IMG/VR virus record: IMGVR_UViG_3300034523_000094 | Coordinates: 1-39,996 of that record | Length of the DNA: 39,996 nt | Strand: one strand, 5' to 3' | Source: a virus | Notes under the pieces: generated by a model | Seen by the model: only the letters and a program-made list of their open reading frames with translations | What the model was told of the DNA's origin: nothing | Database searches by the model: none | Position numbers and translations under genes: made by a program | Shown here: piece after piece, positions 149 through 39,996 of the stretch | How the letters are laid out: every line of letters starts with the position of its first letter | Numbering within the stretch: the stretch's first letter is position 1

Positions 149-184
149 AAAACCGCATCAGTTCAAAAGGACTTATGCGGTTTT
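149..184 (+). promoter_or_regulatory. Inverted repeat AAAACCGCAT / ATGCGGTTTT (10-bp arms, 16-nt loop) just upstream of the small terminase gene. Could be a terminator-like hairpin or part of the packaging site.
   Basis: The arms at 149-158 and 175-184 are perfectly complementary, flanked by an A-run and a T-run. Confidence 0.3.
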
Positions 185-220
185 GCGCTTTTGTTCCTTG
201 GTTCCTTTGGTCCTTTCTCC
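181..220 (-). repeat. 8-bp-periodic array, five units on the minus strand: GGAGAAAG GACCAAAG GAACCAAG GAACAAAA GCGCAAAA
   Basis: Read from the sequence. Same unit family as the arrays at 27632, 33946, 34988 and 37741. Confidence 0.5.
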
Positions 221-222
221 CC

Positions 223-792
223 ATGGGCAAGATCGTCAGCAAGAAGGAACTCGGCGAGCTGATCGGCAAGTCGCCGCGCTGGATCTCGAAACTTATCGAC
301 GACGGCCTGCCGGTTTCCGGTGGCGGTGGTCGTGGCGTCGAGGTGCAGATCGACAGCGAGGCCGCGATCGAGTGGCTGATCTCCCGCGCCGTTCGCCAGG
401 AGCTCGGCGACGACGAAGACGAGGAGGGGCTCGCCTCTGCCTCGACCGAGGATCGCCTGCTCAAGCGCGCGCGCCGCGAAAAGCTGCAGCTCGAGATCGA
501 CCAGACGCGCGGCCGGCTCCTGCCTGCCGACACCGTCTCGCAGATCCTGGTCAGCGTCGCGGCCGTTTATGCAACTCAACTCGACGCGCTGCCTAGCCGC
601 TGCGCTGCCGATCTGGCGGTGATCGATGACCCTGCCACCATCCGAGCTCGAGTATTTGAAGAAACGCGGCGTATCCGCGCAGCTACTGCCGACCGCCTCG
701 AACGTCGCGCACGCGAGCTCGTTGCGGACGTTGACCACCTCGATCAGCTACGCGGCGAAGATGGTGCAGGCGCCGCCGCCGAGGACGGCTGA
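223..792 (+). CDS. Terminase small subunit, lambda Nu1-like
   Basis: The N-terminus KKELGELIGKSPRWISKLIDDGLPVSGGGGRGVEVQIDSEAAIEWL matches the remembered lambda Nu1 HTH and GGGKG.EV.YDS motif. The ATG at 223 is in frame within ORF 175..792. It sits immediately upstream of the large terminase gene. Confidence 0.8.
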   Translation: MGKIVSKKELGELIGKSPRWISKLIDDGLPVSGGGGRGVEVQIDSEAAIEWLISRAVRQELGDDEDEEGLASASTEDRLLKRARREKLQLEIDQTRGRLLPADTVSQILVSVAAVYATQLDALPSRCAADLAVIDDPATIRARVFEETRRIRAATADRLERRARELVADVDHLDQLRGEDGAGAAAEDG

Positions 793-2746
793 CCAGTGGG
801 CGGCCGACAAGCGCATCATGCCGCCGAGCGCGCCGATCCCCGGGCCGTTCAACCCTGACACCAACCCCTATATGCGCCCGGTCGCCTGGGCGTTCGCGCA
901 GCCCTGCTTTTCCCGCGTAACCTTCGTCATGGGCACGCAGATGGGCAAGTCGGTGACGATGGAAAACATCATCGGCCACCGGCTCGACGAGGATCCGACG
1001 CCCTGCCTGTACGTTGCCCCGACCAAGCCGCTGATCGATGGCACGGTCGAGCCCAAATTCATGGCCATGTTCGGCGAGTGCGAGTCGCTCGCGGCGAAGT
1101 ACGAAGGGCGCAGCACGAAAACGGTCAAGTGGCTGGGCGGTACCAAGTTCCGTTTCGCCTGGGCCGGCTCGCCGACCGAGCTCGCCGCCGACTCTGCCGG
1201 CCTGGTGATGGTCGACGAGGTCGATCGCATCGTAAACACGGGCGAAGGTGACACGACCGAAATCATCGAGGCGCGGGGCGATGCCTACGCCGACTCGAAA
1301 ATCGGTTACACCGCCACGCCCACGCACGGCAAGATCGAGCGCCGGCCAGACGAACGCACCGGCCTGTGGCATTGGGTCGTTGCCGAGGCGAAAAAAGTCG
1401 GCTCGAAGGTCTGGCAGCTCTGGCAATCGGGCACCCGCCACGAGTGGGCGGTGCCGTGCCCCGAGTGCGGCGAATACTTCGTGCCCTGGTCGGGCCTGCT
1501 CTGGTGGCCCGGCAAGGGCTCGGCCGAGGAGTGCACGCCCGACGAGGCCTTCAAGCATGCGCGGCTGACCTGTCCCTGCAACGGCTGCATGATCGAGGAC
1601 AAGTGGCGCCCCTGGATGAATGCTCGGGGCGTGCCGGTTGCCCCCGGCGAGTCGATCAGCAAGAAGGGCCAGATCCTCGGCACCGCTGACACGGCCGGGT
1701 TTACTCACTACTCGATATGGGTCTCGGGCCTGTGCAGCTTCGCCGTCAAGAAGTCCTATGGCTTCCTGGCCAAGAAGCTGCTGGCCGCCCTGATCGATGG
1801 CGACCCGGCCAAGTTGCTGGCCGTCTACAACACGGGTTTCGGCGAGTGCTACGCCGAGGCGGGCGACGCCCCAAGCTGGGAGGAGGTTCGCGCGCAATGC
1901 TTTGGCTACGCCGCCGCCGAGCTGCTGCACGAGCCCCTGCGGATCTACTGCACGATCGACGTGCAGAAAAACCGCCTGGTGTACGTCGTGCGCGCCTGGT
2001 TCGCCGGCCTCGGCTCGATGCTCCTCGAGCACGGCGAGCTGTGGGGCGAGACCGATCAGGATGCCGTATGGGACCAGCTGTCCGAGCTGATCGATACCGA
2101 ATACGGTGACGGTCACGGCATCAGCCTGACGGGCATCGATATCGGCTATCGCGACGACCAGGTCTACAAGTTCATCAACGAGCACAAGGGGCGAGCCATC
2201 GCCCTGCGCGGCCGGGAGAAGCTCGACAAACCGTTCCGCAAGGAGCTGGTCGAGCAGGACAAGAAGGGCAAAACCCGCAAGCGCGGCGATGCCCGCTGGG
2301 CGTTCGATTCGCCCCTCGCAAAGCGCTGGGTGCATAGCCGTTTCGGCCGGCCGGATACCCGGCCCGGCTGGTGGCTGCTGCATCAGCAAGTCACCGACGA
2401 CTACTGCAAGCAGCTGGTCGGCGAGGAGTGGCGCGAAAGCGAGGGCCGTTTCCACCAGGTCGGCGAAAACCATTACCTCGACTGTGAGGCGATGCAGTAC
2501 ATCCTCGCCCTGCGCGACAAGCTGCAGCGCCGCAAGGTCGGCGCCCTGACCCGTGCCGAGCTCGTCGCCCTGGTCAAGGGTGGCCAGCCCGTTGCGGATC
2601 CGCAGCCCGCGCCGGTGGATGCCGACCAGGAGGAGGGCGACGACACCCCGCCACCTGCGCCCCGGTCGCCAGCCCCTGCAGAGCCACCGAAACCACGGGC
2701 CAAGGCCCGTCCCCGCGTGAAGATCATCCGCAAATCACCCCGGTGA
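761..2746 (+). CDS. Terminase large subunit, lambda gpA family
   Basis: Roughly 660-aa ORF with gpA-like organisation, a Walker-like GTQMGKS, and a Cys-rich segment CPECGEYF...CPCNGC. The ATG at 761 overlaps the end of the small subunit gene. The start codon choice is uncertain (the ORF is open from 626). Confidence 0.85.
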   Translation: MVQAPPPRTADQWAADKRIMPPSAPIPGPFNPDTNPYMRPVAWAFAQPCFSRVTFVMGTQMGKSVTMENIIGHRLDEDPTPCLYVAPTKPLIDGTVEPKFMAMFGECESLAAKYEGRSTKTVKWLGGTKFRFAWAGSPTELAADSAGLVMVDEVDRIVNTGEGDTTEIIEARGDAYADSKIGYTATPTHGKIERRPDERTGLWHWVVAEAKKVGSKVWQLWQSGTRHEWAVPCPECGEYFVPWSGLLWWPGKGSAEECTPDEAFKHARLTCPCNGCMIEDKWRPWMNARGVPVAPGESISKKGQILGTADTAGFTHYSIWVSGLCSFAVKKSYGFLAKKLLAALIDGDPAKLLAVYNTGFGECYAEAGDAPSWEEVRAQCFGYAAAELLHEPLRIYCTIDVQKNRLVYVVRAWFAGLGSMLLEHGELWGETDQDAVWDQLSELIDTEYGDGHGISLTGIDIGYRDDQVYKFINEHKGRAIALRGREKLDKPFRKELVEQDKKGKTRKRGDARWAFDSPLAKRWVHSRFGRPDTRPGWWLLHQQVTDDYCKQLVGEEWRESEGRFHQVGENHYLDCEAMQYILALRDKLQRRKVGALTRAELVALVKGGQPVADPQPAPVDADQEEGDDTPPPAPRSPAPAEPPKPRAKARPRVKIIRKSPR

Positions 2747-11979: not shown

Positions 11980-14547
11980 ATGCCCCTGACCCCCAGCGCC
12001 AACCCGCAGCTGAGCGAAAGCATCCCCCAGCTGACCACCAACAGCGTCGCGCACCCGGACACCTGGAACCCGGTGCACCAGGCGCTGCTGGATAACGACG
12101 CCTACCTCGCGCGCGTGCTCGAAGAAACCGGCGCGACGCTTGGCGAGCAGGTCGCCACCCTCGATCAGCGTCTTGACGGCGTAGAGGCCACCAGCTCAGT
12201 GGCCGTGCAGCGCGCCGTCAGCCTCGACTGGCTGTACCGCGGCAACGCGATCAACTTCGAGATGTTCACCCCCGGTTATACGTTGATCGATATCGATCCG
12301 GTGGCCGTGGTGCAGGGCATAAATGGGGATGACTCGCTCGACGTCGCCGACACCAGCGCGCTGCGCGCCGGCGACTACTACGTGCTGACCGATCCCGCCG
12401 CCCTGGACGAAGAGGGCAATCCGGCGCCGGTATCCGCCCTGGTGCAGATCGCCAACATCCTCTCCGGCCAGCGCGTGCGCCTGACCGCCAACCTGGCGCG
12501 TGACTGGAGCGCCACCGCCACGCTGTCGCGCTCCAGCCTCGCAGTACAGGGCGCTGCGCTGGCCCGCGGCGAGGTCGGCGATATCTACCTGACCAAGGCG
12601 ATCAACATCGGCACCGACAGCGACGGTGGCGCCGTGGTGATTCGCCGCTCGCTCAGTGCTGCCGAGGCACGGCTCTACTACCGCGATGCCTACCAGGGCA
12701 CATGGAAGGAGTGCGGCTGGTCCATGCGCCGCAGCGGTGGCAGCATCCCGGCCGGCATGGCGGACTACGAATACATCCTGCCGATGCGCGGCGACGGCTG
12801 GTTGCGGCTGGACATTGAGGGTGAGGCGCTGACCCTCTCGCACATCGTCGCCCTGGGCACGCCCACCGGCCTCGGCGGCTTCCTCAACCCGGAGCTGGCC
12901 CCAAGCACACCGGCCATCGCCTCGCCGGCGGACGCCTCGGTCGGCATCATGGAGCGCCCGACGCTGGCCCTGGACAACTACACCAGCCCCGCCGGCAATG
13001 CCCAGCAGGCCGTGCAGTTCCAGATCTCGACCGACGCCCTGTTCGCCACCGTGCTGCACGACTCCGGTGCCCTGGGCTCCGGCCTGTCGTACCGCGTCCC
13101 GGCTGAGGTGCTGCAGGCCGGCAATACCTACTACCTGCGCGGTCGCGTCCAGGACGTCGCCGGCCTCTGGTCCGACTGGTCCGCCGTGACCAGCTTCGCC
13201 ACCGCTGCCGATTTCATCTACGTGGTCGCGCCGACCGTCACCGGCCCGGTCAGCAATGCGCTGGACGTACCCGAGCAGCCAACGCTGGCCAGCTCCTCGT
13301 TCACCGTCTCCGGCGGCGAAGACACGCACGCCGCCAGCCAGTGGCAAATCCGCACTGCCGGCGGCACCTTCAGCGCCCCGGTCTGGGACAGCGGCACCGA
13401 TGCGGTAAACCTGCTGACAGCGGTGGTCCCGGCGGGCGTGCTGCAAGCGGGCGAAACCGGCTACTACGTGCGCGTGCGCCACCAGGGCGTCACCAAGGGC
13501 TGGTCGGAATGGTCCGGCGAGAGCAAGTTCACCACCAAGGCCGCGTTCGCCACCATCGTGGGCATCGCGCTGCTGTCGACCGGCGGCGGCTCCGGCACCT
13601 GGGCGCGCATCGACGAGAACGGCGCCACCAAGGTGACCGACTCGGCATTCTTCAGCAGCCACCAGACCTACGGCCAGATCCAGGACGTCACCATCGACGG
13701 CCAGGCCATGGTCAAGATCCCCGCGTTTTACGTGAAGGCCGGCACCATCGCTGCCGGCCCCAACGCCGGCAAGCGCGCCTGGTGGATCAGCGACCAGCCC
13801 GCCGCGGGCTTCACCCTGCATCCGGCGTTCATGCGCGCCGGCGCGCCCATCGGCCAGTTCTGGGTCGGCAAGTACCAGGGCACGGCGGACGGCACCAAGT
13901 TGGGCTCCAAGCCGGGCGTCACGCCGCTGGTGTCGATCGACTTCCCGACGATGCAGGGTCGCGCCGCCGCGCGGAACGTCTCTGGCGTGTCGGGCTTCCA
14001 GCTGTGGGACTACTACCAGCTCAGCGCCATTCAGCTGCTGGCCATGATCGAGATGGGTGGTGCCAACAGCCAAGCCCTGATCGGTCGCGGCCATGTCGAC
14101 AACTCGCCGTCTGGCGTACAGGTAGTCGACCACCCCACCGTGGCGCAAGCCACCTGGCGCGGCATCGTCGGCCTGTGGGGCAACGTCTGGCAGATGGTCG
14201 ACGGCCTGCGCACCGATGCGGCGAAACGCTACGAGATCTGGGACAAGCACGGCAACAAGGGCTACATCAACACCGGCGCCACCGCCCCGGCCAACGGCTG
14301 GACCGTGAGCCTGTCGGCCAACGCCGGCGCTGATTTCGACCTCGGCCCGTTGTTCGTGCCAGCCACCACCGACAGCGCCGAAGCCAACGGCACCACCGCC
14401 GACCAGAGCTACGCGAACGCCAACTGCGTGGCGTATCACGGTGGCCACTACGGCGTCGGCTCGTACGCCGGCCTGTTCTATCTGTACGTCTCCACCGCCG
14501 CGTCGTACGCGATCCCGTACATCGGCGGCCGCCTCGCAAAGGTGTGA
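11980..14547 (+). CDS. Tail fibre / receptor-binding protein. It has two tandem FN3-like domains and a C-terminal C-type-lectin (FGE-sulfatase-like) domain. It is the DGR target protein.
   Basis: 855 aa. The C-terminus ...CVAYHGGHYGVGSYAGLFYLYVSTAASYAIPYIGGRLAKV is encoded by the variable repeat. The upstream segment WRGIVGLWGNVWQMVDG is typical of Mtd-like and FGE-type CLec domains. Confidence 0.85.
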   Translation: MPLTPSANPQLSESIPQLTTNSVAHPDTWNPVHQALLDNDAYLARVLEETGATLGEQVATLDQRLDGVEATSSVAVQRAVSLDWLYRGNAINFEMFTPGYTLIDIDPVAVVQGINGDDSLDVADTSALRAGDYYVLTDPAALDEEGNPAPVSALVQIANILSGQRVRLTANLARDWSATATLSRSSLAVQGAALARGEVGDIYLTKAINIGTDSDGGAVVIRRSLSAAEARLYYRDAYQGTWKECGWSMRRSGGSIPAGMADYEYILPMRGDGWLRLDIEGEALTLSHIVALGTPTGLGGFLNPELAPSTPAIASPADASVGIMERPTLALDNYTSPAGNAQQAVQFQISTDALFATVLHDSGALGSGLSYRVPAEVLQAGNTYYLRGRVQDVAGLWSDWSAVTSFATAADFIYVVAPTVTGPVSNALDVPEQPTLASSSFTVSGGEDTHAASQWQIRTAGGTFSAPVWDSGTDAVNLLTAVVPAGVLQAGETGYYVRVRHQGVTKGWSEWSGESKFTTKAAFATIVGIALLSTGGGSGTWARIDENGATKVTDSAFFSSHQTYGQIQDVTIDGQAMVKIPAFYVKAGTIAAGPNAGKRAWWISDQPAAGFTLHPAFMRAGAPIGQFWVGKYQGTADGTKLGSKPGVTPLVSIDFPTMQGRAAARNVSGVSGFQLWDYYQLSAIQLLAMIEMGGANSQALIGRGHVDNSPSGVQVVDHPTVAQATWRGIVGLWGNVWQMVDGLRTDAAKRYEIWDKHGNKGYINTGATAPANGWTVSLSANAGADFDLGPLFVPATTDSAEANGTTADQSYANANCVAYHGGHYGVGSYAGLFYLYVSTAASYAIPYIGGRLAKV
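14438..14540 (+). repeat. DGR variable repeat (VR), encoding the last ~35 codons of the tail-fibre gene
   Basis: Hand alignment to 15866..15968 gives 103 bp with 12 differences. Every difference lies at an adenine of the downstream copy. Confidence 0.9.
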
Positions 14548-15855: not shown

Positions 15856-16134
15856 ATGGCTTATTACGGTGGCAACTACGGCAACGGCTCGAACGCCGGC
15901 CTGTTCTATCTGAACGTCAACAACGCCGCGTCGAACGCGAACACGAACATCGGCGGCCGCCTCGCAAACGATTACCGCCAGAAGGCGCCAGGCTCACGGG
16001 CCGGCGTCCAGTGCGTTTCCTTTGGGGCCTTTGTCCAGACCGTGTTGTCGAAGATTTACAGGGCGTCGCGGCTAGTAGCCTCGGCCAATGCGGCGGCGCC
16101 TGCCCTATCCCTCGCATGAGGTAAGGTTTCTGCT
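15856..16134 (+). ncRNA. Expected non-coding DGR template RNA (TR plus the spacer leading into the RT gene)
   Basis: Inferred from DGR biology: TR plus ~165 nt of spacer precede the RT start. The ORF 15856..16119 here is simply the TR read in frame. Confidence 0.5.
15866..15968 (+). repeat. DGR template repeat (TR)
   Basis: Contains nine AAC codons in the VR reading frame. 91 of 103 positions are identical to the VR, and all 12 mismatches are TR adenines. The last 20 bp, ATCGGCGGCCGCCTCGCAAA, are invariant. Confidence 0.9.
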
Positions 16135-17241
16135 GTGCCTGTTACAACCGCTGGCCTATGGGGCCAGATCACCAGTTTCGAGAATCTTTACGCCGCCTAC
16201 CTGGAAGCCCGGCGCGGCAAGCGCGAGCGCGGCTCGGTGCTGCGCTTCTCTGCCAACGTTGAGGAGAATCTGGTCAACCTGCAGAATCACCTGCTGTGGA
16301 AGAGCTGGCGACCCGGCAAACAGCGCGAATTCGTTGTAAAGGAGCCTAAGCTGCGGCTGATTCAGGCGCCGCCCTTCGCCGATCGCGTCATTCATCACGC
16401 CCTTGTTCGCGTGGTCGAGCCGCTGTTCGAGCGCAAATTCATCCATGACTCCTACGCCTGTCGCGTCGGCAAAGGCACCCAAGCGGCTGTCGCCAGGGCG
16501 CAGCACTTCCTGCGGGTGGCCAAGCGCAACCACGGCGACGGCTGCTACGTACTCAAGGCCGACATCAGCCGCTTCTTTTCCAGCATCCGCCACGCCTCGC
16601 TGCTGCGCGAGATCGAGCGCACCGTGCGCGACCCCGACGCCCTCTGGCTGTGGCGCCAGATCATCGCAGGCTACGGCCACGAAGCTGGCATCGGCTTGCC
16701 GGTCGGTGCGCTGACCAGCCAGCTCGGCGCCAACGTCCTGCTGAACCACCTCGACCACGTTGCGAAGGATCAGCTGGGCATCAAGTATTACGTGCGCTAC
16801 ATGGACGACTTCATCGCCGTACTGCCGAACAAGGCTGCTGCCGCCGAGGCCATGCGCGCGCTATCCGCCACGGCCAACAGCCTATGCCTGGCGATGAACC
16901 CCAAGACCGCGATCCATCCCTGGCAGCGCGGTCTCGACTTCTGTGGCTACCGCATCTGGCCAACCCACATCCTGCCGCGCAAACGCAACATCAAACGCGC
17001 CAAAGCATCGTTCCGGCAGCTGGCCACCCAATACCGCGCCGGCCTGATCGATCAGGAGCACGTTCGCCAACGCGTGAACAGCTTCCTGGCCTACAGCAAG
17101 CACTGCCAGGCGCAGAGGACGGTGGAGGGGGTGCTGGCGGATCTGATTCTTACGCGATCGTCTGGAGGTCTCGATGCTCCTGTTCCTCATGCTCGCGCTT
17201 CGCCGCCGCTGGCAGCGAGCGCACTACCGGCTCCCGCCTGA
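16135..17241 (+). CDS. DGR-type reverse transcriptase
   Basis: Carries the RT motifs: YVLKADISRFFSSI, LPVGALTSQLGANV (the DGR-typical [ILV]GxxxSQ), YVRYMDDFIAV (YMDD), and LDFCGYRI. It is adjacent to the TR. GTG start. Confidence 0.9.
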   Translation: MPVTTAGLWGQITSFENLYAAYLEARRGKRERGSVLRFSANVEENLVNLQNHLLWKSWRPGKQREFVVKEPKLRLIQAPPFADRVIHHALVRVVEPLFERKFIHDSYACRVGKGTQAAVARAQHFLRVAKRNHGDGCYVLKADISRFFSSIRHASLLREIERTVRDPDALWLWRQIIAGYGHEAGIGLPVGALTSQLGANVLLNHLDHVAKDQLGIKYYVRYMDDFIAVLPNKAAAAEAMRALSATANSLCLAMNPKTAIHPWQRGLDFCGYRIWPTHILPRKRNIKRAKASFRQLATQYRAGLIDQEHVRQRVNSFLAYSKHCQAQRTVEGVLADLILTRSSGGLDAPVPHARASPPLAASALPAPA

Positions 17242-26626: not shown

Positions 26627-26938
26627 TCACTTCTGCGCCTGCAGCCGCCGGCGCAACTCGTCGAGATCCTCGACCTCGAATTTCCCCTCGCCCCGCTTGT
26701 ACTTCTCGAACAGGTCGTCGATCGCCTCGAGGAGCAGGTACTTGACCGGCGTCGAGTCGCTGGTCATGTTTTTCAAGTCCTGCAGCCCCTTGTGGTAGCG
26801 CACCGGCGCCAGCAGCGGAATCTTCTTTTCTTCGCCATCGCCCGACACTGCAGCGCGCGCCTTTTCGACGTGCGGGCGCTCGATGGTGGGCGCGCCTGCG
26901 CGGCTGGGGCGGGCGGTGCTCAGCTTCCCGTCGGTCAT
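26627..26938 (-). CDS. Small partition partner of ParA, probably a ribbon-helix-helix centromere-binding protein (ParG-like)
   Basis: 103 aa with an ATGA overlap with the parA stop. A disordered N-terminus is followed by a segment IPLLAPVRYHKGLQDL...VKYLLLEAIDDLFEKY, compatible with a strand-helix-helix fold. Confidence 0.5.
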   Translation of the reverse strand: MTDGKLSTARPSRAGAPTIERPHVEKARAAVSGDGEEKKIPLLAPVRYHKGLQDLKNMTSDSTPVKYLLLEAIDDLFEKYKRGEGKFEVEDLDELRRRLQAQK

Positions 26939-27585
26939 TGCAGCAGCTCCAGCAGTTCGGCGGTGACGGCTTCGATCTCGAGGCGCGCCTTGTTGTCGGC
27001 CGGCAGGTCCATGACGCTCTGCCCGCTGCCAATGTCGCGCACGTAGGACTGCCGCTGGCAGGTCTGGCTCGACAGGATGGGCAGCTCGAAGGCCTCGAGC
27101 GCTTCGCGTGCGGTGCGCTCGATCACCGTGCCCGGTACCGCGCGGGCGACCATCATCACGGCGTGAGGGTGGCCGTCTGCGATCTCCTGCCGGTCCTTTA
27201 CCAGTTGCACCAGGTCGCTGCAGGCCCATATGTCGTACTGGCTCGGCTGCACCGGGATCAGCACCAGGTCGGCCGCCTTGATCGCTGCGGCGGCCAGCTC
27301 GCTGATCTGCGGCACGCCGTCGACGACGACGAAGTCATAGCCGCCCGCCACGCGGGGCAGGTCGCGCGCCAGTTGCTTGCCCATGGCCACGCACGGGATC
27401 ACGCCCGGGTCGCCCTCGGCGCCCTCCCGGCTGGCCGCCCAATCGGTTGCCGAGCCTTGCGGGTCGAGGTCGACCAGCAGCACGCGCTTGCCGTGGGTGA
27501 CGGCCAAGCAGCTGGCCACGTTGACCGCGCTCGTCGTCTTTGTGGTGCCACCCTTCTGGTTGAGCACCGAAATTACCTTCGCCAT
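26935..27585 (-). CDS. parA: ParA/Soj-type partition ATPase (small, type Ib-like)
   Basis: Deviant Walker A MAKVISVLNQKGGTTKTT, plus VLLVDLDPQGS and DFVVVDG. An AGGAGGG RBS precedes the ATG at 27585. Confidence 0.85.
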   Translation of the reverse strand: MAKVISVLNQKGGTTKTTSAVNVASCLAVTHGKRVLLVDLDPQGSATDWAASREGAEGDPGVIPCVAMGKQLARDLPRVAGGYDFVVVDGVPQISELAAAAIKAADLVLIPVQPSQYDIWACSDLVQLVKDRQEIADGHPHAVMMVARAVPGTVIERTAREALEAFELPILSSQTCQRQSYVRDIGSGQSVMDLPADNKARLEIEAVTAELLELLQ

Positions 27586-27631
27586 CGCTGGCCCTCCTGG
27601 TGGGTTATCAGATCCAACGGGCACAGATTAG

Positions 27632-27679
27632 CCGCAAAGGAACAAAAGAGCAACAGAACAAAAGAACAAAAGAACAAAC
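27632..27679 (+). repeat. 8-bp-periodic array upstream of parA: CCGCAAAG GAACAAAA GAGCAACA GAACAAAA GAACAAAA GAACAAAC. Candidate centromere/operator.
   Basis: Read from the sequence. It lies 47 to 94 bp upstream of the parA start codon. Confidence 0.55.
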
Positions 27680-27998
27680 AAGCGGACGCGCCAGCGTCCA
27701 ACCTTGTCCGCCTGAATAGCCCCGTCCTTTCTCCCGTGGCCGCAGCCCAGCAGCGGCGCGGGTTTCCCGCGCCATAAACAAGCAGCGCGAAGCGCTGGTC
27801 CTTTTGGTGCATGCCCTCTGCCGCGTCCTTTCTGACCATCTAGCCCGCTGCCGCATCCTTTCCTTGCTGGTGGTTGAGCAGTCGCCGCCCCTTCGCGCTC
27901 GCCTACTTTGCCGCATGGCAAAGGGTGTATGCCTGCGCAGCATCCATACACCCTATACCCTAACAAGTGCATACACCCTCACCCCTAGCACAAGATAG

Positions 27999-28070
27999 GG
28001 CCGCAGGTGTATGCACCCCTGCCCCATTCTATACGTATAGAATGGGGCAGGGGTGCATACACCTGCGGCC
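27999..28070. repeat. Perfect 72-bp palindrome (36-bp arms, centre TATAC|GTATA). Candidate telomere resolution site (telRL).
   Basis: The arms were checked base by base. The core CCATTCTATACGTATAGAATGG resembles the remembered N15 telO CCATTATACGCGCGTATAATGG. It lies 135 bp upstream of the protelomerase gene. Confidence 0.8.
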
Positions 28071-28204
28071 ATATCTACCACTGCGCGAGTTCGTGCCCTA
28101 TGGCTTGGGGTGTATGCGATGAGCGAGTAGGGCTTGTGGTGCATAGTTGTAATGTGTAGAATCTGCGCTAGGGTTTACGGTGTATGCCTAAAGGAGGGCG
28201 AGCC

Positions 28205-29770
28205 ATGGGTGGGGAATCAAGACAGAAGGTCGAGCTGGGCGAACTGATCGAGCAGCTGCTAAAGGACGTGCGGGCGATCGACGGCAATGCGGAGCTGAGC
28301 AGGGGCGACAAGACCAAGCGTCTGACCCGGCTCGCGGCCAGGCTGAAAAACACGCTGTTCGAGGACCGCCGGCGCAAGGAGGAGGACAAGCTCGCGGCGT
28401 CGAGTTATCGCCGGTACCTGACCACCATCCGCAAGGCGGTCACCGCGCAGAACTGGCGGCACCACTCGCTCGAGGAGGCGATCGGCCGGATGGCCAAGCG
28501 GCACCCGCGCTGGGCCGAGCAGCTCGAGGCGATGGGCGCGCATGCGCAGATCAGCGAGGTGCGCCTCGCCCACCGCGACCTGCTGGCCGAGGTGCGCCGC
28601 GCTGGCGACTCTGACGCCTACGACGATATCCGCGCGATGAAGCTCGACCACGAGATCATGCGCCACCTGACGCTGCCAGCCGCGACCAAGGCCGACCTGG
28701 CCGACGAGCAGCTCGAGCGCATCGAGGAGCGGTCGACGAATACGGTCGAGATCAATTACCACTGGCTTATGGCGACGATCGACGGCCTGCTGAGCCAGCA
28801 GCAATTGCGCGCCGATGGGTCGGCCGCGCCCTACTTCTCGCACCTGGCGCTGGGGCTGGCGCTGGCCACCGGGCGGCGCGAGATCGAGGTGCTCAAGCTG
28901 GGCCGCTTCAAGAAGGTGGGCGAGTTCGAGCTCGAGTTTTCCGGCCAGGCCAAGCGGCGCGAGGGCGTCGACTACAGCGAGACCTTCCGCATCTATAGCC
29001 TGGTCAGGGCCGACGAGGTGCTCGAGGCCTTCGCCAAGCTGCGCGCGCTGCCCGAGGTGCTCGAGCTGCAGCACCTGTCGAACGTCGAGGTGAACCGCCG
29101 CGTGGCCAAGACGCTGAACACGCTGACCAAGCGCGTTTTCGGCAGCGAGGAGCGGGTTTTCAAGGACAGCCGGTCAATATGGGCGCGGATCGTTTTCGAG
29201 CGCTACTTCGGCCAGGATGCGCGCTGGAAGAAGGTCAACGAGGACGTCTTCTGGCAGGAAATGCTCGGGCACGAGGGGATGAAGTCGCAGATCCACTACA
29301 AGGCCTTCAAGATCGACTATGTCGAGCCGGTGGCCACCGCCGGGGCGGTACCGGGCAAGTGGGCGAACCGCCTCGAGGCGCTGCAGGCGCTCGACGAGCA
29401 CGAGCGGATCCGCGCGAGCTCCTCGCTGTACCGCATTCACCAGTGGGTGAAAGAGACCGTGAAGGCCGCGCCCGAGGCGCGGATCTCGCAGAAGGCGATC
29501 GCCACCAACGTGGGCAGCTACCGGCCGAACATCAAGGAATATCTCGAGATCGCCGCCGAGGCGCTCGCCACGCCGAACCATTCGCTAGAGGCGGTCGCGC
29601 TCGAGGTGCCCGACCAGGTCGCCAAGGCGAAGCCGCGAATGGTGGCGCATCTGCAGGAAAGTGGGCTCTATCGGGCAACCGCAACGATCAACGGGGTGGT
29701 GGTCGCAACGGCCGAACACGCCGACCGCATGACCGCCTTGGCCGAGGCCTTCAAGAAGGCAGGCGGTTAG
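28205..29770 (+). CDS. tel: Protelomerase (TelN/TelK family)
   Basis: Collinear with remembered N15 TelN: KVELGELIEQLLKDVRAIDG...GDKTKRL..ARLKNTLF, FSGQAKRRE, VFKDSRSIWARIVFERYF...RWKKVNEDVFWQEMLGHEG...QIHYKAFKI (Tyr nucleophile context). An AAGGAGGG RBS precedes the ATG at 28205. Confidence 0.9.
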   Translation: MGGESRQKVELGELIEQLLKDVRAIDGNAELSRGDKTKRLTRLAARLKNTLFEDRRRKEEDKLAASSYRRYLTTIRKAVTAQNWRHHSLEEAIGRMAKRHPRWAEQLEAMGAHAQISEVRLAHRDLLAEVRRAGDSDAYDDIRAMKLDHEIMRHLTLPAATKADLADEQLERIEERSTNTVEINYHWLMATIDGLLSQQQLRADGSAAPYFSHLALGLALATGRREIEVLKLGRFKKVGEFELEFSGQAKRREGVDYSETFRIYSLVRADEVLEAFAKLRALPEVLELQHLSNVEVNRRVAKTLNTLTKRVFGSEERVFKDSRSIWARIVFERYFGQDARWKKVNEDVFWQEMLGHEGMKSQIHYKAFKIDYVEPVATAGAVPGKWANRLEALQALDEHERIRASSSLYRIHQWVKETVKAAPEARISQKAIATNVGSYRPNIKEYLEIAAEALATPNHSLEAVALEVPDQVAKAKPRMVAHLQESGLYRATATINGVVVATAEHADRMTALAEAFKKAGG

Positions 29771-30014
29771 GGAACAGGCACGCTACGGTTCCTTTTGCGG
29801 TGCAATCTACAGCCGGGGCTTGCCCCGGCTTTTGCCGTAAGGCGTAAGCCTCCTCGAGCGCCTCGGCGGCCTGCTCCTGCAGTTCCTGAACCGAGGCGAC
29901 CGCCTCGAGGATCTGCTCGAGGCTGACCTGCTGCGCGCTGGCCTGGACCATCACGAGCAGGGCCTGCGCCCTGCGGATCTTGTTTGCGGCGGTGTCCATC
30001 CTTTCGAGACTCAT
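29751..30014 (-). CDS. Small hypothetical helical protein downstream of repA
   Basis: A GAGGAGGG RBS precedes the ATG at 30014. The 3' end of the ORF runs through the tel terminator hairpin, so its true extent is uncertain. Confidence 0.3.
   Translation of the reverse strand: MSLERMDTAANKIRRAQALLVMVQASAQQVSLEQILEAVASVQELQEQAAEALEEAYALRQKPGQAPAVDCTAKGTVACLFPNRLPS
29811..29834 (+). terminator. Intrinsic terminator after the protelomerase gene (AGCCGGGG-cttg-CCCCGGCT followed by TTTTG)
   Basis: A perfect 8-bp stem with a T-tract. Confidence 0.65.
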
Positions 30015-30076: not shown

Positions 30077-33000
30077 TCACCGGGCGGACGCCTGGAGAAG
30101 TTTCTCGGCAAAGCCAAGTGTCCGATTTATTGACGCATCACTGAGCCGGCCACTCACGAAGTCCCGAACCACCTCCGGCGCCAGCGCCCCCACCAGGCGC
30201 GACAGCGGTATGCCGGAAGGGCGGTAACAGCGAGAAGCCAAAGCGAGTAGATGCTCGGTCACTGCCAAGGGATACTTTTCATCTGTGTCTGTACCCTCAC
30301 AATGCAAAGTGTCACTTTCGCTGCAAGCCACGGGCGCCGGGGCCTGTGGCTCGACGGGCAGGGCTTCGGGGGCTTCCTTGGGCTGGTAGTCACTGGCCGC
30401 TTCGTGCGTCGTCAACGAGTGGGCGCCGAGCGCCTGGCGACGCAAGACATAGGCCATCACGAACGACCATCGGTCGGCATTGATCGAGAACAGGTTCCGC
30501 CCATTGCTCGACCGCTTCTCGACCGTGAGGCCGAACCGCTCGAGCATCGACTTGACCAGCGTCGTGGCGCAGACCCTGGCGCTGGTGCTGTGCAGGTGGC
30601 GGCCGACGCGCAGCGCGTTGTAGGCATCAAGGGCCTGCTGGCTGGCGGTGACCTTGGCGAGCACTTGCTTGCATTGCTCGGCTGAGAACTCGCCGGCGCC
30701 GGTGTAGCGATCGAGGCCGAGGGTCTCGAACAGCTCGACCAGGAAGGCGCGGGTGGCCGTCTTGTAGCGGTGCTGGGTCAGAACCACGCGCGCTTTGCGC
30801 TGGGCTTCGTCGTAGGCCTTGGCCTGGGCTTCCTCGGCCTGCAGCAGCTCGAGGGCGACGACCTTGGCGATGCCGCGATCGTCGTAGAAGGCGACGTCGT
30901 CTTCGGTGGGCTCGAGCACGCCGAGCTGGTGGGCCAGGTGGTAGCGGTCGACCTGGGCACTCTCGGTCTCGCTGCGGACTTCCTGACGGTTGAGGCGGCC
31001 GAAGGTCTCCTCGTCGGGCACCTCGACGCTGGTCAGCAGATCCATGCGCTTGGCGAAGACGAGCGCGCCGGCGTGCTTGCGGTTGCTGCGGCTCTCTTTC
31101 GTGCGCTCGGGGTCGTCGAGATCCGCCCGGCCGACCTGGTAGCCGTCGGCGATCAGCATCAGCAGCAGGTTGTTGGCGAAGTCGTTGCGGGCCTTGTTTT
31201 CGGTGGTGACGCTGGTCAGGTACAAATGATCAAAAGCGGTTTTCTTCCTGACGAAGCGCGCCTCGCCGGCATCCTCCTCGAAGGCGAAGGTGATCCCGTC
31301 GAGCTCCATCAGGCCGCGATAGATGGCCTCGGGATCCGTGGCGCGCTGGGCTGAGCTGTGACCGATCCCGACCAGGTACTCGCGCGCGGTACGGTCACGG
31401 CGCAGCATCTGGATGGCGTCGGAGGGGCTGACGGTGTTGCCGCTGAACAGGCCGACATGGCGCTCGAAGTGCGGCGTGGTCATGGAAACGCCCGAGCTGA
31501 TCGCCGGCGAGTAGATCAGGACGTCGTACTTCACCGCCTCGGCGTTGGGGCTGCGCAGGAAGGCCTCGACATTCGGGTCGGCCTTGCTGTCGGCGTGCAC
31601 CAGGAGCATGCGCAGCGGCTTGCATTCGCCGTGCTCGATGCGCTCCTCGATCAGGGCGGCCATTTTCTTGGCCGACTCGGCCGAGTCGTTGGCGACCAGA
31701 ACGCGCTTGCCGGCGCAGATCCAATCGAGCGCGACCTGCCAGGCGGTCTCGTCGTCGGTGTGGTTGACGCGGATATGATCGGTCGGGCCTACGACCTCGA
31801 GGATGGTGATCGGCTGGCCGGGGCGGGCGAGCTCGCAGAACTCGACCACCGTGTCGTTGGCGTCGGCGTCGCAGAGCAGCACGCGGCGCGCCGAGGCGAC
31901 CGCGTCGAGCAGGGCATCGAACACGCGCACGCGGCCGTCGACCGGGCCGGTGGCGGTGTGGCTGATCACCTGGCTGGCTTCATCGATGCAGAGGGTATCG
32001 ACGGTGGTGAACCACGAGCGCTCGTCGGTGTTGTAGAACTTCGGATGGGTCAGCGAGTTGACGCAGCAGGCCAGGTGCGAGACGTCTCGCATCCACGCGG
32101 CCGAAACCTGCTGGTAGTGCTGGATGTTGAGGCGCGAGGCGGCGTCGTCGAGCAGCGAGACGCGGTGGGCGATATAGGCGGCTTTCGGCGCGGCCTGCAT
32201 CAGCGGGGCGATCAGTTTCTCGGTTTTGCCGGAGCCCATCGGCGCGCGGCTGATGATCATGCCCTCGAGGGAATCGACCAGGTCGGCGAAGTGCGGGGGC
32301 AGCTCGATGCCGCCGTGCGCAGCGCGCACGCCTTCGACGCGCAGGTGCTGCACGTGCGGCTTGGCCAGGGTGGCAGCGGAGAAGCCGCGCAGCTCGCGGG
32401 CCTGCTGCAGCTTCTGGTCGGCCAGCCACTTAACGAAGCGGCGGATCTTGAAGCGGTCGACCTCGACGCCGGCCGGGATCTTCTTCTCGACCATGCGCAG
32501 CACTTCGCGGCCGGTGTAGCGGATCGGCACCAGGAGCATGCCGGCGGCGACGGCCGACTTGGCGGCCTTCTCGGCGGTCAGGCCGGAATAACCGAGGCGC
32601 TGCAGGCAGTAATCAAACCAGTCTTTCTCGGCGCGCAGCACGCTGTCGCGGGCGCGCAGGGCCTTGGCGGTGGCGGCCAGGCCAAAGGCGACGTGGTAGT
32701 CGTTCCAGTCGGTCGGCCCCTTGCGGGCGGCCTTGAACGCGGCCAGTTCTTCACCGCTGAACCCGACGACAGGCGCCCGGTTTTGCGCGCGCAGCTCGGC
32801 AATCTGCTGGGCGCTGCAGCCGAACAGCTCGAGGCTGGCGGCGAAGTTGGGGACGATGGCCGGGTGCTGCAGCTCGCGGTGGATCTCGAGGCCTGCTAGC
32901 ACGCCGGCGTTGCCGGCCTGTGGCTTCCACTGGTCGTTGTCGGCGGCGTTATGGAAGCGCCAGGCCGGGTAGTGCTTGGCGTACTGGCGCAGCACCTTGC

Positions 33001-33934
33001 CGAGGTTGTCGACGTTGAAGGTCACCACGACGGCCACTTCGTTGCCGGCCTCGAGCTCGGCCAGGTAGACGCTGGCGCCGGTGGCGAAGCCTTCGACGCT
33101 GTAGCGGCGGTCGGCGGTCTCGAGGTCGCCAAGGATGCAGTGGGCGCCGTCCATCTTGACGCCGGTGCCCTGCAGCTTCTTGTCGGCATAGAGGCGCTGC
33201 AGGCCAAGGAACACGCCGGAGATATTGAACAGCGGAACGGCGGTAAACTCGCCGTGACTGTCACGCATACGTTGCATTTTGAAGCGTGACGCGATCGCCG
33301 CGATCTGCTTCGCCTGCAGGTAAGGGGCGCTGCCGTCCTCCTCGCCAATGACCTCGACGAAGCCCTTGCGGATCTTGCCGCCGGCTTCGTACTCGAACTC
33401 GTGGCGCCCGCCGCAGTGCCAGGCGGCCTCATAGGCCAGCCGCTCGCGGTGGATCCGCGCCTCGGCTTCGGCCCGGCGCTGCTCGGCTTCTTTCTGCGCG
33501 GCTTCGCGCTTGGCGCGCTGTTCTTCCTGACGGGCCAGCCATTGCTGGTGCTTCTCGCTGGTGACGTTGCCGCCTTCGCGCTTGTAGAGCTCGGCCAGCG
33601 CTGCGAGGCCCGACCAGGTCGCGTGACCATAGGCCGGGTTGTTGTTGTTGAAGGTGAAGAAGGGATAGTCGAAGTCGTCGGCGCGCTTCGTGTCGCCCCA
33701 CGCCATGACTTTGCCCCGGTGGATCTTGTCGGTTACGCCGTCTTTGCCCTTGGGGCGGGCCTTGTCGCCGCGCAGGCCGATCTCGTTGCGAATCGCTGAC
33801 CAGCGGATGCCGACCGATGCCGCCACGTCGGCGATATCGGCGTCGAAAAAGTCGATCAGTGACCAGGGGTCGGAACGGAACCGCTCGGCGTAGAACCGGG
33901 CCAGTGCGCTCGCGTCGTCCTTCGTGTTCTGCAT
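30077..33934 (-). CDS. repA: Large multidomain replication protein (primase/helicase, N15 RepA-like)
   Basis: 1285 aa, with a Walker A PMGSGKTEKL in the central region. Its size and its position next to tel and par match the N15 RepA arrangement. An AAGGAA RBS precedes the ATG at 33934. Confidence 0.7.
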   Translation of the reverse strand: MQNTKDDASALARFYAERFRSDPWSLIDFFDADIADVAASVGIRWSAIRNEIGLRGDKARPKGKDGVTDKIHRGKVMAWGDTKRADDFDYPFFTFNNNNPAYGHATWSGLAALAELYKREGGNVTSEKHQQWLARQEEQRAKREAAQKEAEQRRAEAEARIHRERLAYEAAWHCGGRHEFEYEAGGKIRKGFVEVIGEEDGSAPYLQAKQIAAIASRFKMQRMRDSHGEFTAVPLFNISGVFLGLQRLYADKKLQGTGVKMDGAHCILGDLETADRRYSVEGFATGASVYLAELEAGNEVAVVVTFNVDNLGKVLRQYAKHYPAWRFHNAADNDQWKPQAGNAGVLAGLEIHRELQHPAIVPNFAASLELFGCSAQQIAELRAQNRAPVVGFSGEELAAFKAARKGPTDWNDYHVAFGLAATAKALRARDSVLRAEKDWFDYCLQRLGYSGLTAEKAAKSAVAAGMLLVPIRYTGREVLRMVEKKIPAGVEVDRFKIRRFVKWLADQKLQQARELRGFSAATLAKPHVQHLRVEGVRAAHGGIELPPHFADLVDSLEGMIISRAPMGSGKTEKLIAPLMQAAPKAAYIAHRVSLLDDAASRLNIQHYQQVSAAWMRDVSHLACCVNSLTHPKFYNTDERSWFTTVDTLCIDEASQVISHTATGPVDGRVRVFDALLDAVASARRVLLCDADANDTVVEFCELARPGQPITILEVVGPTDHIRVNHTDDETAWQVALDWICAGKRVLVANDSAESAKKMAALIEERIEHGECKPLRMLLVHADSKADPNVEAFLRSPNAEAVKYDVLIYSPAISSGVSMTTPHFERHVGLFSGNTVSPSDAIQMLRRDRTAREYLVGIGHSSAQRATDPEAIYRGLMELDGITFAFEEDAGEARFVRKKTAFDHLYLTSVTTENKARNDFANNLLLMLIADGYQVGRADLDDPERTKESRSNRKHAGALVFAKRMDLLTSVEVPDEETFGRLNRQEVRSETESAQVDRYHLAHQLGVLEPTEDDVAFYDDRGIAKVVALELLQAEEAQAKAYDEAQRKARVVLTQHRYKTATRAFLVELFETLGLDRYTGAGEFSAEQCKQVLAKVTASQQALDAYNALRVGRHLHSTSARVCATTLVKSMLERFGLTVEKRSSNGRNLFSINADRWSFVMAYVLRRQALGAHSLTTHEAASDYQPKEAPEALPVEPQAPAPVACSESDTLHCEGTDTDEKYPLAVTEHLLALASRCYRPSGIPLSRLVGALAPEVVRDFVSGRLSDASINRTLGFAEKLLQASAR

Positions 33935-34245: not shown

Positions 34246-34914
34246 TCATCGAATCAGGCCTTTGGCGATGCTCATGCGCATGCCGGTGACCAGCCCGATC
34301 ACCTTGAAGTTGCCGTCGACAGAGATCGGCGGGAACTGTGGATTTAACGGTCGAAGGTACCGCTGCGAACCGTCTTGGATCAACTTCTTGAAGGTCGGCT
34401 CGGCCGGCGTGACGGTGTAGCCGACCACCAGGTCGTTGGCCTCGGCTTCCTGTCGAGGATCCACGAAGATGACCGCCCCCACCGGGAAGGCCGGCCCGCT
34501 GGGGGCGTGCATGGTGTCGTCGCGCACCACCAGGCCGAACACCGCCCCGGGCGGATTGTCCGGTGCCAGCACCCAAGGCGTTCCGGTCGGAAGTCGTTCT
34601 ATGGCGGGGCTTTTAGCCCATTCAGCGGCCATTTCCCAAGGGATGACCGGCACCCGTTTTACCGTCTCGGCAGGCGCTGCAGGCGCCTGGGTTTCGCCGA
34701 GTGACTCCTCGATAAGCGCGTCGATAGTGGTGCCGAATGCCTTCGCCAATGCGTAGGCCGTCAGCACGGTGGGGACGCTCTTTTCCTTCTCGATGGCAGA
34801 TAGCGCGCTTGGGTAGACGACATTGTCTGCAGCGTCGCACAGGCGTTGGAGCGACCAGTGCTGCGCTTGTCGGCGCCGGAGTATCGCCGGCCCGATAGAA
34901 AACTTTTGGTTCAT
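34246..34914 (-). CDS. cI: CI-type repressor (HTH plus S24/LexA-like C-terminal domain), lambda CI-like
   Basis: The C-terminus PTFKKLIQDGSQRYLRPLNPQFPPIS aligns with the lambda CI segment [26 protein letters not shown]. The N-terminus is XRE-type HTH-like. The gene is divergent from the early operon. Confidence 0.85.
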   Translation of the reverse strand: MNQKFSIGPAILRRRQAQHWSLQRLCDAADNVVYPSALSAIEKEKSVPTVLTAYALAKAFGTTIDALIEESLGETQAPAAPAETVKRVPVIPWEMAAEWAKSPAIERLPTGTPWVLAPDNPPGAVFGLVVRDDTMHAPSGPAFPVGAVIFVDPRQEAEANDLVVGYTVTPAEPTFKKLIQDGSQRYLRPLNPQFPPISVDGNFKVIGLVTGMRMSIAKGLIR

Positions 34915-39813: not shown

Positions 39814-39869
39814 TCTCGCCCCAGGTTGGTGCGCCACGGGTTTTAGGTACTCCCCCGGCCCCTCCCCCT

Positions 39870-39996
39870 TCACGGGTGTGAAACTCGCGGGCTTCGCGCG
39901 GGTTTGGATCCGCGAGTCGGGTCCGTTCTTCCTTTCTCGAGGCCCTGCCGGCCTGCTTCGCTCGGCTGACCCCGCAGCCAGTCACGGCGGGGCCTC
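39870..39996. repeat. Copy of bases 1..127 (contig-end overlap)
   Basis: Identical on direct reading. Confidence 0.9.

Follow-up and report, generated by a model that had tools for sequence, protein, structure and literature searches.

The palindrome at positions 27999-28070 is very probably the telomere resolution site (telRL) of a temperate, contractile-tailed Stutzerimonas/Pseudomonas telomere phage related to phiHAP-1 and VP882. This reading is based on the palindrome itself, the family and catalytic residues of the enzyme encoded next to it, the conservation of the site among related phages, and public assemblies that fold back at the site or are of double length. The window, i.e. the whole stretch of 39,996 nt that was analysed, has identical ends (positions 1-127 and 39870-39996). 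It therefore represents a whole contig, circularised in the assembly, with a unit genome of 39,869 bp.

The first-pass annotation had described positions 27999-28034 as the exact reverse complement of 28035-28070, and this was reproduced when the symmetry was recomputed. The axis of the 72-bp palindrome (no strand) lies between 28034 and 28035, which is the predicted point of hairpin formation. The perfect palindrome is the centre of telRL and is contained in a full inverted repeat of 84 bp (27993-28076, no strand), the 42-nt arms of which pair throughout except at offset 37 from the axis; in most sister variants this pair, too, is complementary. Chance could be excluded as a source of the palindrome, because the next longest perfect palindrome in the whole 39,996-nt window has arms of only 10 nt; by our own arithmetic, the chance expectation of a perfect 36-nt arm is ~40,000 x 4^-36, or ~1e-17. 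Folded as single-stranded DNA, the 84-mer gave one hairpin of -51.1 kcal/mol, compared with -12.9 +/- 2.4 kcal/mol for shuffled sequences (z = -16). Over 25 independent contigs, as well as phiHAP-1 and VP882, have an equivalent site in the parA-tel interval.

The gene to the right of the palindrome (28205-29770, plus strand) encodes a protelomerase (telomere resolvase) of 521 aa, as shown by Pfam, the TelK structure and alignment. Its start codon lies 170 nt to the right of the palindrome axis. All three TelK domains were matched in Pfam (TelK_N, 8e-12; ResT-TelK_cat, 2e-27; TelK_stirrup, 1e-7) and TelK structure 2v6e was matched at 2.5e-59 over almost the whole length of the protein. The identity to the enzymes of phiHAP-1 and VP882 was 58% and 51%, respectively, and that to the enzymes of N15, phiKO2 and PY54 was 28-31%. 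Residues R225, K250, R323, H356 and Y365 align with R275, K300, R383, H416 and Y425 of TelK/TelN, and these five catalytic residues are invariant in the six protelomerases compared (those of the window, phiHAP-1, VP882, N15, phiKO2 and PY54). The domains, the 2v6e match and the catalytic alignment confirm the earlier description of this ORF as TelN-like with an HYK tyrosine context; the alignment with TelN and TelK, which had been proposed as a check, showed that the full Arg/Lys/Arg/His/Tyr set is kept. From this alignment Y365, in the motif IHYKAF, is the predicted catalytic tyrosine; the Y425F mutant of TelN is catalytically dead (PMC12624138). The N-terminal insertion (~55 aa) and the acidic C-terminal insertion of the N15/phiKO2 type are both missing in the enzymes of the window, phiHAP-1 and VP882.

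The conserved core of the site, CCCCATTCTATAC/GTATAGAATGGGG (28022-28047, no strand; the slash between the two halves marks the axis, here and below), is the equivalent of N15 telO. A 24-nt search pattern, CCCAT(A/T)CTATACGTATAG(T/A)ATGGG, which is the 26-nt core stretch without its outermost base pair, was found in phiHAP-1, VP882, Halomonas and Pseudomonas relatives and 31 IMG/VR stretches. Comparison with the known telRL sites, another of the checks named beforehand, thus revealed the same core in phiHAP-1 and VP882. The first-pass annotation had seen a resemblance to the N15 telO core, and this held only in part: counted from the axis, the half-core (CCCATT.TA.AC) agrees at 9 of 12 positions between the window and N15, which has CCCATTATACGC/GCGTATAATGG, but the repeat region of phiHAP-1 is much closer.

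The core is surrounded by copies of a short arm box. An exact-copy search found seven copies of GGTGTATG in the window, all inside 27924-28187. Three copies, as GGTGTATG(C), are in the left flank (27924-27977), at 27924 on the plus strand and at 27945 and 27970 on the minus strand, and two are in the right flank (28109-28187), at 28109 and 28179, both on the plus strand and between the palindrome and the tel start codon. The flanks of phiHAP-1 are arranged alike with a box of their own, 11 of the 12 ATGTATG copies being located within 150 nt of its axis. By analogy, the flanking GGTGTATG boxes are candidate extra protelomerase-binding repeats, to which the enzyme may bind; for N15 telRL, a 56-bp core with additional flanking repeats is described in PMC12624138 (citing Deneke 2002). 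A different set of repeats is located upstream of parA (27635-27863, no strand), consisting of a periodic 8-nt unit, CAAAAGAA, that is present five times (27635-27685), and of three 14-mers with GTCCTTTC in them (at 27719, 27820 and 27850). Motifs with GTCCTTTC are present in the corresponding intergenic region of VP882 too, and the CAAAAGAA/GTCCTTTC repeats are a candidate centromere or par operator. A consensus promoter scan detected no sigma-70-type promoter between parA and tel.

The closest well-described counterpart of the site is found in phiHAP-1 (Hapunavirus HAP1), in which telRL corresponds to the annotated repeat region 26850-26948 and the protelomerase to HAPgp34. Window and phiHAP-1 share the order parA, palindrome, tel, small ORF, repA and repressor (cI), and their genomes are collinear, including the P2-like structural genes for a contractile tail. 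The core of phiHAP-1 is CCCATACTATAC/GTATAGTATGGG, so that both cores have the form CCCAT(A/T)CTATAC/GTATAG(T/A)ATGGG. In both phages the axis is 170 nt from the start of tel and is flanked by arm-box copies; across these two, two Halomonas phages and the plasmid pNY5520-NR described below, this distance ranges from 170 to 172 nt. However, only 38% of the genome could be aligned to phiHAP-1 at the DNA level, with ~68% identity (blastn). The two phages also differ in the arm box (GGTGTATGC in the window, TATGTATGC in phiHAP-1), in the length of the palindrome arms (36-42 nt and 46-58 nt, respectively), in the diversity-generating retroelement of the window, and in their hosts: Stutzerimonas/Pseudomonas for the window, which has a G + C content of 67%, and Halomonas for phiHAP-1.

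VP882, also a Hapunavirus, has the same layout of parA, palindrome, tel and repA and an identical 12-nt half-core. Its palindrome is imperfect, with perfect arms of 12 nt and arms that differ by indels, in contrast to the perfect palindrome of the window. In addition, VP882 carries a gene for a LuxR-family transcriptional regulator between tel and repA, where the window has no such gene. This regulator is described as the quorum-sensing receptor VqmA-phi (PMC12802170). In a third Hapunavirus, HMP1, a 120-bp inverted repeat is located between parA and telN, and restriction analysis showed that the prophage is a linear plasmid (PMC9170930). The core and the architecture shared with phiHAP-1 and VP882 make the site of the window homologous to the telRL of phages for which a linear plasmid prophage is established. 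For phiHAP-1 this form of the prophage was reportedly described by Mobberley in 2008.

The relationship to N15 (TelN) and phiKO2 (TelK) is more distant. They have in common with the window the enzyme family, the catalytic residues and a palindrome upstream of tel beside a ParA-type gene. However, the central 6 bp are TAC/GTA in the window and CGC/GCG in N15 and phiKO2, tel starts 190-192 nt from the axis in these phages instead of 170 nt, and their structural genes are those of a siphovirus, whereas the window has myovirus structural genes.

The first-pass annotation had predicted a linear plasmid with hairpin ends and had named fold-back at 28034/28035 as a check. The public assemblies do turn at the equivalent of this position, in the same phage and in relatives, and they show no integration. 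ParA was found in 59 blocks of the collection index, and 23 contigs were read. Only long fold-backs were considered, because these can arise only from reads in which a flank continues into its own reverse complement and are therefore discriminating; short contig ends were left out, leaving three independent cases. The first is ENA contig k141_91391 (72,689 bp), a metagenome contig of the same phage, which encodes a ParA identical to that of the window and has 97% DNA identity. It is mirror-symmetric about the equivalent of 28034/28035, with 0 mismatches over all 9,552 nt available per side. A look-up with the 87-aa ORF between tel and repA, toward the outer ends of this 72.7-kb contig, returned short contigs only.

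The second case is the Pseudomonas aeruginosa plasmid pNY5520-NR (NZ_CP096940.1), which is recorded as circular. Its 77,056 bp consist of two exact mirror halves of 38,528 bp, and the two axes precede tel by 171 nt and parA by 441 nt, respectively. Each axis is located on a core identical to that of the window, and the halves agreed without mismatch in the 6,041 and 3,000 nt that were compared. Long-read assembly of a hairpin-ended linear molecule yields just such a circle of twice the unit length. Apart from the 26-bp core and the 171-nt spacing, pNY5520-NR resembles the window in its layout (parA, tel, repA and S24 repressor) and in tel (79% DNA identity), but it belongs to another species-level lineage and its record is a double-length 'circular' one instead of a unit genome. 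The third case is one IMG isolate genome, in which contigs fold back at either end of the element, over 441 nt on the tel side and at least 1,877 nt on the parA side. Another plasmid, pF010_1 (NZ_CP115281.1, 75,659 bp), is probably also of double length, judging from its length and four matching places.

In isolate genomes the element is found as a separate contig of about 36-39.5 kb. Isolates with such a stand-alone contig were Stutzerimonas kunmingensis 28M-8 (99% Tel identity), Pseudomonas cuatrocienegasensis, P. frederiksbergensis and two Halomonas strains. None of the contigs examined had chromosomal flanks. A linear plasmid form with hairpin ends is thus supported by the public assemblies. 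The fold-back contigs could alternatively be derived from head-to-head replication intermediates, which belong to the same life cycle.

It is conceivable that the palindrome is only an operator of the divergent parA and tel genes, or a centromere, in an element that is circular or integrated and in which the protelomerase is a relic. The palindrome does lie in a divergent, repeat-rich intergenic region, and it is intact in the window, a circular assembly, and in some isolate assemblies, among them the contig of the S. kunmingensis isolate, a lysogen. These intact copies indicate that the linear form is accompanied by uncut DNA, either virion or replicative, and such a mixture of cut and uncut DNA in cultures is expected from spontaneous induction. 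This is at odds, however, with the retention of every catalytic residue, with the fold-back and double-length assemblies that turn exactly at the axis, and with the lack of chromosomal flanks on the contigs. We therefore consider a purely regulatory or partition function very unlikely. An additional regulatory role of the palindrome next to its function as telRL, e.g. in tel autoregulation, is possible.

The ParA-type partition ATPase (216 aa; 26935-27585, minus strand; AAA_31, CbiA and VirC1, with the Pfam matches obtained on the containing 229-aa ORF 26935-27624) is transcribed away from the palindrome and is 51% identical to ParA of phiHAP-1. Downstream of parA is a small gene of 103 aa (26627-26938, minus strand; phrog_15913, 3e-20), a homologue of phiHAP-1 ORF32, the product of which is, by its position, a candidate partition partner. 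Between tel and repA a small conserved ORF of 87 aa (29751-30014, minus strand) was identified through a gene call in sister contigs; it had no family match. The RepA-like replication protein, a primase-helicase of 1285 aa (30077-33934, minus strand; phrog_4913 'replication', 1e-290; primase and helicase families), is 52% identical to RepA of phiHAP-1. With the partition ATPase and this RepA-type protein, both plasmid maintenance genes are present. Beyond repA is a gene for a CI-like prophage repressor (34246-34914, minus strand; Pfam HTH_3 and Peptidase_S24).

The remaining genes are those for terminase, portal, head protein, P2-like contractile tail, Q-like antiterminator and lysis. The small and large terminase subunits (175-2746, plus strand; small ~175-792, large within 626-2746) were located by tblastn with TerS and TerL of phiHAP-1, and the large subunit matched phrog_15 (1e-148). 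An overlapping ORF, 9-596, had no family match; it was ORF 175-792 that was hit by TerS of phiHAP-1. On the 39.9-kb circle the terminase genes are roughly 12 kb or 28 kb away from telRL. A cos/packaging site, cutting at which would make the virion DNA circularly permuted relative to the prophage, is expected just upstream of terS, in the 360-nt stretch after the last gene (around 39,814-39,996 and 1-174). Looking up the large terminase for contigs ending at cos gave no match; the start codon of the query was probably wrong.

The window also contains a diversity-generating retroelement, with a reverse transcriptase ORF at 16135-17241 (phrog_1423, 4e-125), a template repeat at 15857-15968 and a variable repeat at 14429-14540. 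The variable repeat lies at the 3' end of an 855-aa ORF (11980-14547), probably for a tail fibre, and 12 of the 14 differences between the two repeats are on template adenines. Some sister contigs carry a DUF7338 gene where the window has the retroelement.

A telomere-type site and enzyme might also be found in a defective or cryptic copy that no longer cycles between virion and linear plasmid. Decay does occur in the lineage, as shown by a MAG relative (GCA_043955505.1, contig JBINOI010001041.1) that lacks the centre of the palindrome and has a split repA. In this contig 86 bp are missing between 11-nt direct repeats GTGCATACACC (equivalent to 27967-28063), and repA consists of two ORFs. Either the palindrome was really excised, which would make this a defective or circular derivative, or the assembly collapsed at the site. 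For the window itself, this possibility is contradicted by the genes for packaging, head, tail, lysis, repressor, RepA and Par, which form a complete, collinear set and have long open frames, by the presence of the exact protelomerase sequence on at least 17 public contigs from many samples, and by the circular assembly with an intact telRL, which implies that virion or replicative DNA was present. That the window represents such a copy is very unlikely. Least probable of all, and practically to be dismissed, is that the assembler created the perfect palindrome by a chimeric join of inverted pieces: assemblers do mishandle palindromes, as the one collapsed site (JBINOI010001041.1) and several double-length records illustrate, but the left and right flanks are unlike each other and have their counterparts in the parA-side and tel-side flanks of the more than 25 independent assemblies, phiHAP-1 and VP882, and the 127-nt assembly overlap exceeds the 84-bp repeat, from which, equating overlap with k-mer, we infer that reads spanned the whole repeat.

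Many contigs end close to the palindrome (131-344 nt upstream of tel). Such stops were rejected as physical ends, as they mostly reflect assembler behaviour. Many contigs stop 6-42 nt past the axis, and these were not counted as evidence since de Bruijn assemblers break at any palindrome. The Logan contigs that start at the equivalent of 28047 do so where a k=31 graph would branch on reaching the border of the 84-bp repeat. Stops at 15, 36 or 38 nt past the axis are likewise those expected for k=31 or k=77; overshoots of 15 and 38 nt equal the limit of a self-loop at these two k-mer sizes. Scaffold7 of Pseudomonas sp. HS-2 (ML178810.1, 95.8 kb) was considered as a case of integration and rejected, being an N-rich patchwork with repeated pieces of tel and repA; two of its phage pieces start 12-19 nt left of the axis. 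A telomere phage with a core of the Halomonas/phiHAP-1 type (CTATAC/GTATAGTATGGG) was encountered in the cyanobacterial genome assembly of 'Spirulina subsalsa' FACHB-351 (NODE_168, NZ_JAIHOM010000047.1; 36.3 kb). This contig begins 6 nt left of the axis and probably originates from a heterotroph in a non-axenic culture.

For the telRL of the window a mechanism can be proposed which, as a whole, is taken by homology from N15 TelN and phiKO2 TelK; the positions of the cuts, the binding of enzyme to the flank boxes and the cos ends of the virion DNA are predictions. After infection, the genome would circularise. A half-site consists of CCCCATTCTATAC as core, a spacer of variable sequence and the GGTGTATGCAC box, and the two half-sites would be bound by a dimer of the protelomerase, encoded 170 nt away. 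The Y365 residues of the two subunits would then cut the two strands, staggered around 28034/28035, after which each cut strand would be rejoined to its own complement. This would leave the prophage as a linear plasmid of ~39.9 kb whose ends are covalently closed hairpins, with parA ~450 nt from one tip and tel, ahead of repA, 170 nt from the other. Replication would produce L-L and R-R junctions, which are perfect palindromes by construction, and these would be resolved by the same reaction. By bringing in additional enzyme, the extra GGTGTATG flank boxes would probably act like the repeats that flank N15 telRL.

To compare the arms across phages, 28 distinct junctions from public contigs were used. 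Their half-sites follow a common plan: a fixed core at offsets 1-12 from the axis, a variable spacer at offsets 13-17, a box approximating GTG(C/T)ATACAC and a conserved GCCC at offsets 34-37. The invariance of offsets 1-12 is partly a matter of ascertainment, because this stretch served as the search pattern. In the window the spacer corresponds to 28018-28022 and 28047-28051. Spacers vary among the phages (GCAGG, CGAAC, TGGCA, CAAAG, GGATC), yet the left and right arms have the same spacer in most of them. Over the 28 junctions, left and right arms matched at 21.6 of 30 positions within a phage and at 10.9 of 30 between phages; matches were counted in register from the axis, because MAFFT put indels into the alignment of the junctions. 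Close variants of the window phage are polymorphic, often asymmetrically, at offsets 13-16 and 30-32.

The prophage carries the two arms at its opposite ends, and in the standard model one arm never serves as the template for the other. The likeness of the arms at freely variable spacers therefore raises the possibility that both telomeres are homogenised over long time scales. We regard it as rather improbable that the arms are actively kept alike beyond what shared recognition by the enzyme would bring about. If they are, this would imply telomere exchange or gene conversion between the ends, for example through mismatch correction in an extruded telRL cruciform or through protelomerase-mediated fusion and re-resolution. 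The arm-box arrays might then be an enzyme-loading platform for end protection.

Telomere phages of Stutzerimonas and Pseudomonas related to VP882 and phiHAP-1 were reported in 2025 (Sci Adv, PMC12042878), and a data-mining study listed 213 TelN-positive Pseudomonas sequences (PMC12802170). The hairpin-telomere system itself is already known, and the phage described here is a further example of it from a distinct lineage. Megablast gave no close DNA match in the phage collection. By ICTV convention, members of a genus share about 70% nucleotide similarity over the genome. With a coverage of 38% at 68% identity to phiHAP-1, the similarity to Hapunavirus (phiHAP-1, VP882 and HMP1) falls well short of this level. 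This alignment and the result of the megablast search therefore point to a separate lineage, and on genome comparison the phage is related to and collinear with Hapunavirus but probably falls outside the genus.

The understanding of how telomere phages work is unchanged by these results. They do provide the correct annotation for a common phage-plasmid of Stutzerimonas/Pseudomonas. Protelomerase/telRL pairs serve to make closed-ended linear DNA, and for this phage the telomere site, its core and the likely catalytic tyrosine are now defined, which could be useful. They also mean that some 'circular' database plasmids of ~76-77 kb are double-length read-arounds of hairpin-ended linear replicons of ~38 kb.
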